Shown in pieces: positions 4,862 to 8,323 of a stretch of DNA of 64,000 nt. This stretch comes from a phage. Numbering within the stretch: the stretch's first letter is position 1; every line of letters begins with the position of its first letter. A program made the position numbers and the translations under genes. The notes under the pieces were generated by a model. The model was not told the origin of the DNA. It did no database searches and was given only the letters and a program-made list of their open reading frames with translations. Location of the stretch: the sequence record PX421306.1, one strand, 5' to 3'.

Positions 4862-5323
4862 TCATTGAGTTTTAATTACTGCTTTAGAAGCCTTTCCTGG
4901 TAAACGACGACTGTTAATAATTGCCATCCTGCACTGAAGCGACGGGTCTTTGAACTTCGCATTAGGTTTACAAACTGTAAATCCAAGCCAAAGATTTCCA
5001 TCTGTGATTTCTAAACGTCCAGGACGATATTCAATCCCATCAATAAAATCCTCGTCAATGTCAGGACGCGGAGGCATACTCAGGAATTCATTAACTTCTA
5101 AAACATGGTCTTTTATTTTATGGAATAATTCAAAAACATATGTCTCATCAATCTCCCGTTGAATTGCACGATCAAGAAGATGTTGAGAATATTTTAGATG
5201 AAACGATGAGACCCCTGCTGCTTTTGATGCCTCACGAATCTCATTGTTAATTTGACGAAACTCCGACTCAAAGTGACGACGGAGCTTATTTCGACGGATA
5301 AAAACTTCTGTGTTGATAGTCAT
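4862..5323 (-). CDS. regB: RegB site-specific endoribonuclease
   Basis: 153 aa; translation matches T4 RegB as I recall it (MTINTEVFIRRNKLRRHFESEFRQ...). Confidence 0.92.
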   Translation of the reverse strand: MTINTEVFIRRNKLRRHFESEFRQINNEIREASKAAGVSSFHLKYSQHLLDRAIQREIDETYVFELFHKIKDHVLEVNEFLSMPPRPDIDEDFIDGIEYRPGRLEITDGNLWLGFTVCKPNAKFKDPSLQCRMAIINSRRLPGKASKAVIKTQ

Positions 5324-5344
5324 GTTATTCTCCTCTTAACTGAT

Positions 5345-5385
5345 AGAAAAATTATACCACAGTCAAGAGGAAAAGTAAACAGTTA
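5345..5385 (-). promoter_or_regulatory. early-type promoter upstream of regB
   Basis: Minus-strand GTTTAC (5375-5380) and TATAAT (5351-5356) with 18-nt spacer. Confidence 0.55.
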
Positions 5386-5661
5386 TTCTTTAAATCTAAT
5401 CAATTTATTCATAGACTTTGAAACTTCTGCACGAACCTCATGTAGGTTTTTGAGCTGTTCAAGACGTTGCTCATAGTAAGCAATTTCATCTTCTTCGAGA
5501 CAGTCCTGTGAATCTTCTTTTAGATAACGCGCATAGTCCTGGAAAGCTTTACGGACTACTTCCTGGAAGTCATCAAGACTTTGAATTTTCTTAGGAGCAA
5601 CAGATACACGACGAGGGGCAGTATAATACTCATAACCAAACCCTGCGCTTAATTGAGCCAT
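5383..5661 (-). CDS. hypothetical protein
   Basis: Start moved to ATG 5661 (MAQLSAG...) giving TAATG overlap with upstream stop. Confidence 0.5.
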
Positions 5662-5927
5662 TAATATTTTTCCTCTGGTTGGAACACAGCACGACAAGCC
5701 CACATACTGGCTTCTTTGAGTTTCGTTTTAGCAATAGTTAACTGATCAAGACTTTCAGCATAATTCTTCGCGAATTCACAGTCTTCACAATTATCTAGTG
5801 CTTCCCAGAATTCATCATATAAAGCATCAAAGATAAGTCCTAAACGAACTTCAGCATCTTTGATAGCATTCACTTTACCGATTTTCTCTTCAGTGTGCGG
5901 CTTATAACCCTTAATATCTTCAATCAT
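5661..5927 (-). CDS. hypothetical protein
   Basis: 88-aa ORF in coupled early array. Confidence 0.5.
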
Positions 5928-6141
5928 ATTCTACTTCCTCACCAGTACATAAATCATATTCAACTAAACGAATAGGTTCATGAATGCCATATCCCTGAAC
6001 AGAAATTTCTGTCGTAGGATAAATTCCATCAATATCACCCATATTCCATGCTTCATTAAATTGCTGTTCGCCTGAATTACTAAACCACTCGGCGAAAGCA
6101 TTTAGCACATCTTTAGAACCTTCAATAATTATCTTTGCCAT
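5920..6141 (-). CDS. hypothetical protein
   Basis: 73-aa ORF; start overlaps stop of upstream gene by 1 nt. Confidence 0.5.
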   Translation of the reverse strand: MAKIIIEGSKDVLNAFAEWFSNSGEQQFNEAWNMGDIDGIYPTTEISVQGYGIHEPIRLVEYDLCTGEEVEYD

Positions 6142-6515
6142 TACAGACTCTCGGTAAAGGTACGAGCGATAACGTCGCGCTGCTGTTCCGGAGTCAGAGA
6201 GTTAAAGCGAACTGCATAACCGGATACACGGATGGTCAGCTGCGGATATTTTTCTGGATGCTTAACTGCATCTTCCAGAGTTTCACGGCGCAGAACGTTA
6301 ACGTTCAGGTGTTGACCACCTTCAATTTTAACTGTAGGTTGTGTTTCAATTTCAATTTCACGGGCATGCAAACCGTAGAAAATTTCTGGGTCTACAAAAG
6401 AGTCCTCTTTAAAGGTTTTAGAGACAATAATTCGTGCTTGAATACCGTCTTCAAAATAAATAGTACCTTTATGCGTGCCTTCAAGAATTTGATATGCTTT
6501 CATATAACCTCTCAA
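6141..6515 (-). CDS. autonomous glycyl-radical cofactor (GrcA/YfiD-like, T4 Y06I-like)
   Basis: 124 aa; C-terminal RVSGYAVRF glycyl-radical motif as in pyruvate formate-lyase C-terminus and GrcA. Confidence 0.75.
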
Positions 6516-6838
6516 TTAGAAAATAAATTTATCCAAGACTGTTCTTTAATTAAAAATGGCTCAGAATCATATGCCATTAAACTTTGGGTGATTAGTCCTT
6601 TAAAAGGTCCATCAATAAATTCCATGGTAAAATATGGAATTTTATTCATTAATCTTGCATTAGGAGCAGTGCACAAAACTCTGCATCCTTTGAATACGCC
6701 TTTTTGTAATTTGTATTGCTTAGGATAAAATTCGCTCAAGACGTTATTATTTGCCAAAATTTCAAAATGATTCACCAATTTATTTTTAATAGTTTTTGGC
6801 GAAAAATAAAGATATTCGAAAAGTTGCGTGTCTGTCAT
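6512..6838 (-). CDS. hypothetical protein
   Basis: Start moved to ATG 6838 (MTDTQ...) overlapping upstream stop (TAATG); ATGA overlap with downstream gene. Confidence 0.5.
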
Positions 6839-7377
6839 CATTGCATTCCGATTATGAAAAACTGTGGACGAGTAATACCACCAATGCAGCATTTACTATT
6901 GCAACAGTGGTGCACAGTTTCAATATGAATATCGTAAATTTTATCCATATCAGGAGATTTAACAGGCTCATCGATTATATACAAAATCCGCGAAAGCGAT
7001 AAACCTCTGAACTTGCTTCCTTTATTACCGATAAAACTACGGACAGAATCGGTAAATAAGCGGAATCGAATATCATCGCCAGAATAACGAGAAAATTCTT
7101 TTTTAATGTGGCCCGCAGAAATTTTAGCGTAAGCTGAAGTATTAGAAAGAACAATAACTGTTCCACCGTCATATAACCAATTAGCGGCAAAATTAGTTAC
7201 TGCAGTTGATTTACCGGATTGACGTCCACCATCTAAACGAAGTGTGCAATACTGCTTAAGTAAGTCTTCAAATGGTGGGATATAATCGTTTTTACAAATT
7301 TCTTCTACTCTAGCATCAGAATGGTGTGTAAAAGCATTCATCAGGGATAGATAAGGACCAGTTAAAAATGTTCTCAT
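6838..7377 (-). CDS. P-loop NTPase-like protein
   Basis: Walker A-like GGRQSGKST; start set at ATG 7377 (MRTFLTG...) with purine-rich RBS; 5' extent uncertain. Confidence 0.5.
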   Translation of the reverse strand: MRTFLTGPYLSLMNAFTHHSDARVEEICKNDYIPPFEDLLKQYCTLRLDGGRQSGKSTAVTNFAANWLYDGGTVIVLSNTSAYAKISAGHIKKEFSRYSGDDIRFRLFTDSVRSFIGNKGSKFRGLSLSRILYIIDEPVKSPDMDKIYDIHIETVHHCCNSKCCIGGITRPQFFIIGMQ

Positions 7378-7517
7378 TTTATTCTCTCTAAATTTGGGCC
7401 ATTCCATGGCGCATGAATTGTCCATTTCTGTATTTACCCATTACCGCACTTGGGCTCGACCTTATTACAGGTTGGCGGAATCCCTCACAGAATCATGAGG
7501 TCCAGGTTGTTCCCATA

Positions 7518-7991
7518 TTATTTGAATGATTTGACGTACTGAATAGAACCTTTACTATTCACGAAAGCGATTTTACCATTCTTATTATACATGGTAGCAG
7601 TACGCTGATAGCCATAAGTTTGCTTACCGGATTGATAACCAACTAATGCGAAATTATCTTCACCCATTTTATTCTGTTTAGCACGAATACGTTCATGACC
7701 GTGTGCCATAAGAACCTTAGCATCACCAGTTGAAATTGATCTACGAGTTTTTTCATCTTCAACTGTATTAACAAAGTCGTCAAATGAATCAAATTTAGCA
7801 TGGGATTTATTATACAGTTTTCCATCTACTGCATAATTATATCCCTGTACATCCATCTCAACTTCTGTACCATCATCCAATACAGCAGTGATTTTTTGAC
7901 CTTTTTTAAATTTCAAAAGATCAGTAAAAGATTCAGCAATAATTTGAGAATTAATAGCTGCTTCAGTAATAAATTCTTGATATGTTTTCAT
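7518..7991 (-). CDS. internal head protein (IPIII-like, capsid-targeted)
   Basis: 157 aa; N-terminal MKTYQEFITEAA leader matching the T4 capsid targeting sequence cleaved by prohead protease after E. Confidence 0.75.
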   Translation of the reverse strand: MKTYQEFITEAAINSQIIAESFTDLLKFKKGQKITAVLDDGTEVEMDVQGYNYAVDGKLYNKSHAKFDSFDDFVNTVEDEKTRRSISTGDAKVLMAHGHERIRAKQNKMGEDNFALVGYQSGKQTYGYQRTATMYNKNGKIAFVNSKGSIQYVKSFK

Positions 7992-8005: not shown

Positions 8006-8323
8006 TTATTCTTTAGGGAAGTTTTTAGAATATGCATCATAAAGCTTATTTCCAATACGGCGGAAAACTCTAGCCGCAAAACGATTTTCTGGGTTTTTAA
8101 TCATGATTTGCATCATATAAGTACCCGCGTCAGAAAGAGCTTCTTCATAGTACCCATTAATTTCTTTAAGAGTCCTACGTTTACCACCAGGACCATCAAC
8201 AGTAATTTTCCATTTACCTGTAGAAGTGCGGCTCGGTGGCTCAACTTGTTCAATCCAAATATAACCTCCTTCTACACGTTGTCCTTGGGCAGATTCTGCA
8301 ATAAATTCTTTATACGTTTTCAT
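8006..8323 (-). CDS. internal head protein (IPII-like, capsid-targeted)
   Basis: 105 aa; N-terminal MKTYKEFIAESA targeting leader. Confidence 0.75.
   Translation of the reverse strand: MKTYKEFIAESAQGQRVEGGYIWIEQVEPPSRTSTGKWKITVDGPGGKRRTLKEINGYYEEALSDAGTYMMQIMIKNPENRFAARVFRRIGNKLYDAYSKNFPKE

Follow-up and report, generated by a model that had tools for sequence, protein, structure and literature searches.

Two proteins, E. coli YfiD (GrcA) and Y06I, the product of phage T4 gene vs.6, are named as the sole two validated spare parts for oxygen-damaged pyruvate formate-lyase (PFL) in a report that summarizes the earlier work (Wagner et al. 2001, via PMC8683613). According to the same report, the activating enzyme PFL-AE installs a radical on the spare part, the activated protein then forms a complex with oxygen-cleaved PFL (cPFL), and T4 Y06I restored PFL activity in vitro. 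In YfiD, residues 1-60 are disordered and important for cPFL binding and activation, and residues 61-127 reproduce the fold of PflB residues 693-759 (PMC8683613). Gene vs.6 was present in 6 of 6 T4-like genomes (Nolan et al. 2006, PMC1524935). We found no in vivo phage phenotype of vs.6 in the searchable literature.

The locus described here lies in a 64,000-nucleotide stretch of phage DNA (record PX421306.1; here, the window), which on sequence grounds is assignable to Tequatrovirus, the T4-like phages. The 2 kb surrounding the gene share 98.4% identity with Escherichia phage vB_EcoM_P8 and at least 97% with many Tequatrovirus genomes, with 900 phage records matching the region. Between 3.5 and 9.3 kb, the gene order is that of T4 tk.4, vs, vs.1, regB, vs.3-vs.8, denV, and e. 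Within it, an open reading frame (ORF) at 6141..6503 on the minus strand, stop codon included, occupies the T4 vs.6 position between vs.7 and vs.5; T4 synteny and the Pfam, PDB, and PHROG searches described below identify it as the ortholog of vs.6 (Y06I), encoding a 120-amino-acid (aa) GrcA-like autonomous glycyl radical cofactor.

A first-pass annotation of the window had placed this gene at 6141-6515. The ORF is real and does end at 6141, but that start is 12 nucleotides (nt) too far upstream. It derives from the ORF list, in which the frame 6141..6515 (minus strand) opens with a TTG at 6515 and yields 124 aa, the C-terminal end being the motif that the annotation had quoted. ATG 6503 is almost certainly the true start because the TTG overlaps the stop codon of vs.7, the gene upstream (TGA, 6512-6514, minus strand), a Shine-Dalgarno GAGG lies 4 nt ahead of the ATG (6508..6511, minus strand; both elements were read directly), and T4 vs.6 is annotated as 363 nt, equal to 6141..6503. 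On the downstream side, the ORF list, the sequence, and the T4 annotation place the ATG of vs.5 at 6139..6141 (minus strand), where it overlaps the vs.6 stop as TAATG. With the stop of vs.7 before it and the start of vs.5 after it, the 120-aa ORF is free-standing, with no fused catalytic barrel. The genes vs.8-vs.7-vs.6-vs.5-vs.4 form a tightly packed and translationally coupled cluster. A promoter and terminator scan of 5300-7700 returned 10 promoter-like sites against 8.7 expected, none of them convincing upstream of vs.6, which seems to be transcribed together with the rest of the vs.8-vs.3 cluster.

Profile and structure searches confirmed the glycyl-radical motif that had been noticed at the C terminus of this minus-strand ORF. 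The Pfam Gly_radical family (PF01228) matched residues 60-101 with an E value of 2.2e-18 (67.2 bits against a cutoff of 22.2), and phrog_1209 (PHROG 1209) matched at full length (5.4e-63; residues 1-120 against a 121-position profile). Among PDB entries, E. coli GrcA (6OWR) was recovered at 4.6e-42, with vs.6 residues 22-120 aligned to GrcA residues 28-127, and PflB (1H16) was recovered at 4.8e-26 over vs.6 residues 58-120 (63 aligned); other glycyl radical enzymes scored weaker. The predicted alignment to GrcA over the radical region is thus present, and across the final 60 residues the two proteins are identical. The radical loop RVSGYAV is present with every catalytic-loop residue intact, and alignment to GrcA and PflB predicts as the glycyl radical site Gly95 (GrcA G102, PflB G734), whose GGT codon lies at 6219..6221 on the minus strand. 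A single-sequence AlphaFold2 run on the 120-aa protein gave an unusable model (pLDDT 35, pTM 0.22).

The best NCBIfam model was TIGR04365, the GrcA equivalog (IPR011140 in InterPro), yet vs.6 scored 154.6 bits, below the 170-bit cutoff (E. coli GrcA, 233.9), because its N-terminal half is divergent. That half aligned to GrcA with 35% identity in a pairwise blastp search (E value, 3e-6), and an hhalign comparison of the N-terminal halves from 10 diverse phage sequences with those from 66 host sequences gave a probability of 95% and an E value of 3e-8 over 59 aligned columns, with 27% identity. These alignments make the N-terminal half of the phage protein a remote homolog of its GrcA counterpart from end to end. 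The GrcA-like spare-part identity proposed in the first-pass annotation is therefore upheld by the alignments to GrcA and T4, with the qualification that the protein falls below the strict TIGR04365 cutoff and diverges in its N-terminal half.

The expected kinship with T4 proved close. T4 Vs.6 (Y06I, NP_049730) shares 118 of 120 aa (98%) with the window protein, along with its length, syntenic position, and chimeric structure; the two differ by 2 aa (T54P and R73H in T4) and 11 nt, and at residue 73 the window protein agrees with E. coli GrcA in having R, whereas T4 carries H. The feature is the already known T4 gene vs.6, so that its re-identification, although a correct annotation of a textbook T4 accessory gene, adds nothing new on function. 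E. coli GrcA (P68066, 6OWR) is likewise a small stand-alone protein, 97.3% identical at the DNA level over the shared last 60 aa, but it is 127 rather than 120 aa long and is transcribed from the host grcA promoter, whereas vs.6 is transcribed from a phage polycistronic early-region cluster. The N-terminal half of the phage protein is AT-rich in its coding sequence, phage specific, and only ~27-35% identical to GrcA; because this half serves binding and activation in YfiD, partner preference or kinetics could differ from those of GrcA. The C-terminal glycyl radical domain of PflB (~693-759, 1H16) shares a fold element and the RVSGYAV loop with vs.6, but it sits within a 760-aa enzyme while vs.6 is a free-standing module, and vs.6 resembles GrcA more closely than it does PflB, whether proteins or DNA are compared.

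We assign a probability of about 85% to the reading that this ORF, a Tequatrovirus gene orthologous to T4 vs.6, encodes an autonomous glycyl radical cofactor that reconstitutes oxygen-cleaved PFL and that its radical-domain half was recently replaced from the host. Conservation favors this reading, with dN at 0 in the 3' half and well under dS in the 5' half. On the model of Y06I, with which the protein is 98% identical, the host radical-SAM activase PflA would install the radical on Gly95 in the RVSGYAV loop, and the C-terminal domain (residues 61-120, with the fold of PflB 693-759) would then dock into PflB that had been cleaved by oxygen at Gly734. Docking would restore the conversion of pyruvate to acetyl-CoA and formate. 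In an infected facultative anaerobe under microaerobic conditions, the fermentative supply of acetyl-CoA and ATP could thereby be sustained for phage production, with the phage reliant on host PflA and PflB. The upkeep of host anaerobic pyruvate metabolism during infection and its importance in the gut, both put forward in the first-pass annotation, are inferences.

The same searches bear on which enzyme the protein serves. It is improbable that vs.6 is a spare part for another glycyl radical enzyme, either host TdcE (2-ketobutyrate formate-lyase) or phage NrdD, activated by NrdG. A nucleotide-metabolism role has been proposed on the grounds that NrdD also has a Gly_radical domain (Nolan et al. 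2006, PMC1524935), a vs.6 homolog in Aeromonas phage PX29 (NC_023688.1) directly adjoins nrdG, whose product activates the anaerobic ribonucleotide reductase of the phage, and the C terminus of TdcE is close to that of PflB, with a ~78% nucleotide match to the 3' half of a Jiaodavirus gene (phiA85). Against these points, the C-terminal 60 aa are those of GrcA, 63 aa align with PflB at 4.8e-26, class III ribonucleotide reductase chains account for 0 of 33 PDB matches, and Y06I works with PFL and PFL-AE (PMC8683613); rescue of TdcE would be an activity additional to PFL rescue and not a substitute for it. Even less probable is a decoy that competes with host GrcA or PflB for PflA, or that blocks cleaved PflB unproductively, and so redirects host metabolism. 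The part of YfiD that controls binding and activation corresponds to a phage half that is strongly diverged but that purifying selection still maintains in the phages, which counts in favor of a decoy. However, all catalytic-loop residues are intact, a flawless radical domain would be superfluous in a decoy, and the restoration of PFL activity by T4 Y06I in vitro (PMC8683613) speaks directly against one.

Repair of PFL thus remains the preferred function, and the structure of the gene adds to it a history. In a blastn search of 5,426 complete E. coli genomes, vs.6 nt 179-363 matched grcA at 97.3% identity in 5426/5426, and nt 1-178 had no match. The alignment switches abruptly to host-type sequence at codon E61 (TTGAAGGTGG). 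We therefore distinguish a phage-type 5' segment of 180 nt (6324..6503, minus strand), which is AT-rich, without an E. coli nucleotide match, phage-like in GC content at third codon positions (GC3), and remotely GrcA-like by hhalign, from a host-type 3' segment that runs from codon E61 to the stop (6141..6325, minus strand) and encodes the structured radical domain. The two halves of vs.6 differ in GC3 (5' half, 0.22; 3' half, 0.44), against 0.42-0.43 in each half of E. coli grcA. The 3' segment (183-185 nt) differs from E. coli grcA at five positions, all of them synonymous and three of them in the last 13 nt. Over the 170-nt core (6154-6323), identity to E. coli grcA is 98.8% for the window, 99.4% for T4, and 100% for Mosigvirus RPN187; among the remaining members of an 80-species panel, none approaches E. 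coli (Citrobacter, 91%; Klebsiella pneumoniae, 87%; Salmonella, 83%).

After the 170 host-like nt, the final 13 nt (6141-6153) keep phage-specific variants, as they do in five other phage sequences compared; these variants are synonymous or, in Jiaodavirus, S-to-A. Because these last 13 nt are phage type, the 3' edge of the host-derived tract can be placed just before the overlapping vs.5 start. They may have stayed phage type owing to their overlap with the ribosome binding site and start codon of the next gene.

Phages of different hosts share this structure but carry different host sequences. Sequences that match E. coli grcA with 95-99% identity, starting at nt 200, occur in approximately 500 records of Escherichia, Shigella, and related phages. 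For K. pneumoniae grcA, a database-wide comparison gives 106 phage records with 95-99% identity over nt 202 to ~369, and almost all of those listed are Klebsiella phages. The K. pneumoniae gene was taken from the PLSDB "plasmid" collection, in which complete or incomplete chromosomes also occur (entries CP125156.1 and LR134122.1), one example being a 5.37-Mb K. pneumoniae "plasmid unnamed2." In Jiaodavirus, a genus of Klebsiella phages, the vs.6 5' half is clearly homologous to that of the window (equal in length and 72-75% identical in nucleotide sequence), is preceded by a vs.7-type gene where labels are given, and meets the 3' half at the junction found in the window phage. The Jiaodavirus 3' halves, however, match K. 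pneumoniae grcA (90-98%), and their cores are 90-96% identical to it versus 82-88% to E. coli grcA. At 20 core sites that separate the two host genes, E. coli phages have the E. coli base at 18-20 and Jiaodavirus has the Klebsiella base at 14-19, and an amino acid signature likewise tracks host type (LEDAVK for E. coli, LLDAVE for Klebsiella). Host matching would thus reach synonymous sites as well as this signature, with hints of further events within genera.

Longer blastn matches between grcA and some Mosigvirus genes (query 255-491, 88-91%) had suggested a different junction there, but alignment showed these to be low-identity extensions, with the junction unchanged. A search for a third host-matched case with Salmonella enterica and Enterobacter asburiae grcA against phage records returned none more than 90% identical. 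The annotation of grcA in K. aerogenes NCTC10006 shows a truncated gene (324 nt), probably the product of an assembly frameshift. Although contamination would also look like near-identity to host DNA, it is scarcely credible that the host-like 3' half is an assembly or contamination artefact or a neutral passenger in a gene with no selected function, given the same chimeric junction in ~500 independent E. coli-phage and ~106 Klebsiella-phage genomes, an intact reading frame translationally coupled to its neighbors, and 0 nonsynonymous changes in the 3' half among the window phage, three Mosigvirus phages, and E. coli grcA (T4 has one, R73H).

Two other histories of the host-type half were rejected. 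Against a single capture followed by codivergence with the hosts, the 5'-half dS between Tequatrovirus and Jiaodavirus is 1.1-1.9 (saturated), while each 3' half is far closer to its own host's grcA; the 3'-half dS between E. coli phages and E. coli grcA is 0.05-0.17. Transfer from phage to host was set aside because the 3' halves of host grcA diverge with species relatedness (Escherichia sp., 99%; Citrobacter, 93%; Klebsiella, 85-88%), a pattern that sets the direction as host to phage, and because GC3 does not differ between the two halves of E. coli grcA. Since the junction is the same but the 3' halves match E. coli and K. pneumoniae grcA, respectively, the radical domain has been replaced from host DNA at least twice independently, with an E. 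coli-type sequence in Tequatrovirus and Mosigvirus and a K. pneumoniae-type sequence in Jiaodavirus.

Comparisons of the two halves within and between genera bear on later events. Between the window and Mosigvirus, identity is 76-80% in flanking genes, 91% in the vs.6 5' half, and 96-97% in the 3' half, with 19-21 differences in the 5' half versus 5-8 in the 3' half (Fisher P values of 0.002-0.03). Within Jiaodavirus the reverse is seen in pairs whose 5' halves differ at 0-2 positions, since their 3' halves differ at 10-14, all synonymous (P values of 0.0004-0.01), which suggests further exchanges or rapid amelioration. In six Jiaodavirus vs.6 sequences, changes relative to K. pneumoniae were biased from GC to AT (8-14 versus 4-8).

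The most likely course begins with an ancient capture of full-length grcA, after which the N-terminal half would have diverged while the highly constrained radical domain retained a likeness to host grcA sufficient for conversion, probably through homologous recombination with fragments of host DNA. We somewhat favor the view that the radical-domain half is overwritten now and then by the grcA of the current host, which would keep the spare part matched to the host PFL and PFL-AE. A description of the host-matched vs.6 3' half was not found in the searchable literature, beyond whose reach several key papers lie, and we regard it as a modestly interesting addition to a known gene. Host-phage intragenic recombination has reportedly been described for cyanophage psbA (by Zeidner in 2005 and Sullivan in 2006). 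The likeness is that of an auxiliary metabolic gene common to phage and host with patches swapped between copies; the vs.6 tract differs in that it spans one defined domain (~170 bp), has a 5' junction that is fixed, and occurs in T-even phages, whose DNA contains hmC. If true, recurrent host-to-phage gene conversion would have a clear case in hmC-containing T-even phages, which destroy host DNA and yet, as the host-matched 3' half shows, still recombine with it. The 170-bp tract could serve as a simple natural marker for measuring how genes flow from host to phage and for tracing the hosts that a lineage has recently used.

By tblastn, vs.6 homologs occur in 1589 of 50,697 phage records, including T5-like, jumbo, Aeromonas, and Vibrio phages, which would put a PFL repair module in ~3% of sequenced phage genomes. 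Most are labelled GrcA or pyruvate formate-lyase, and the GrcA label stands in hundreds of the records matching the region. The 142-kb record PV654520.1 carries the name "Pseudomonas phage vB_PSGBLB0006," and its vs.6 protein shares 99.2% identity with that of the window; either its host label or its assembly seems open to doubt. The nrdG neighbor in PX29 hints that, in some lineages, a radical-SAM activase encoded by the phage itself may activate the vs.6 product or be regulated together with it.

Two observations concern the neighborhood of vs.6. The vs.4 ortholog (5661-5927, minus strand), two genes downstream, is probably the "anti-CBASS protein 2" of the closest phage record, PV390659.2, an equation that is only probable because the gene names under that match are given without assignment to individual genes; on that basis, the spare-part gene appears to be clustered with a counter-defense gene and regB. 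Farther upstream, the ORFs at 7518-7991 and 8006-8323 (both minus strand; 157 and 105 aa) open with MKTY(Q/K)EFI(T/A)E, the leader that targets T4 internal proteins to the capsid, and beyond it bear no likeness to T4 IPIII or IPII. They lie between vs.8 and denV, whereas T4 ipII and ipIII lie between denV and e, and the pair looks like an alternative internal-protein cassette.
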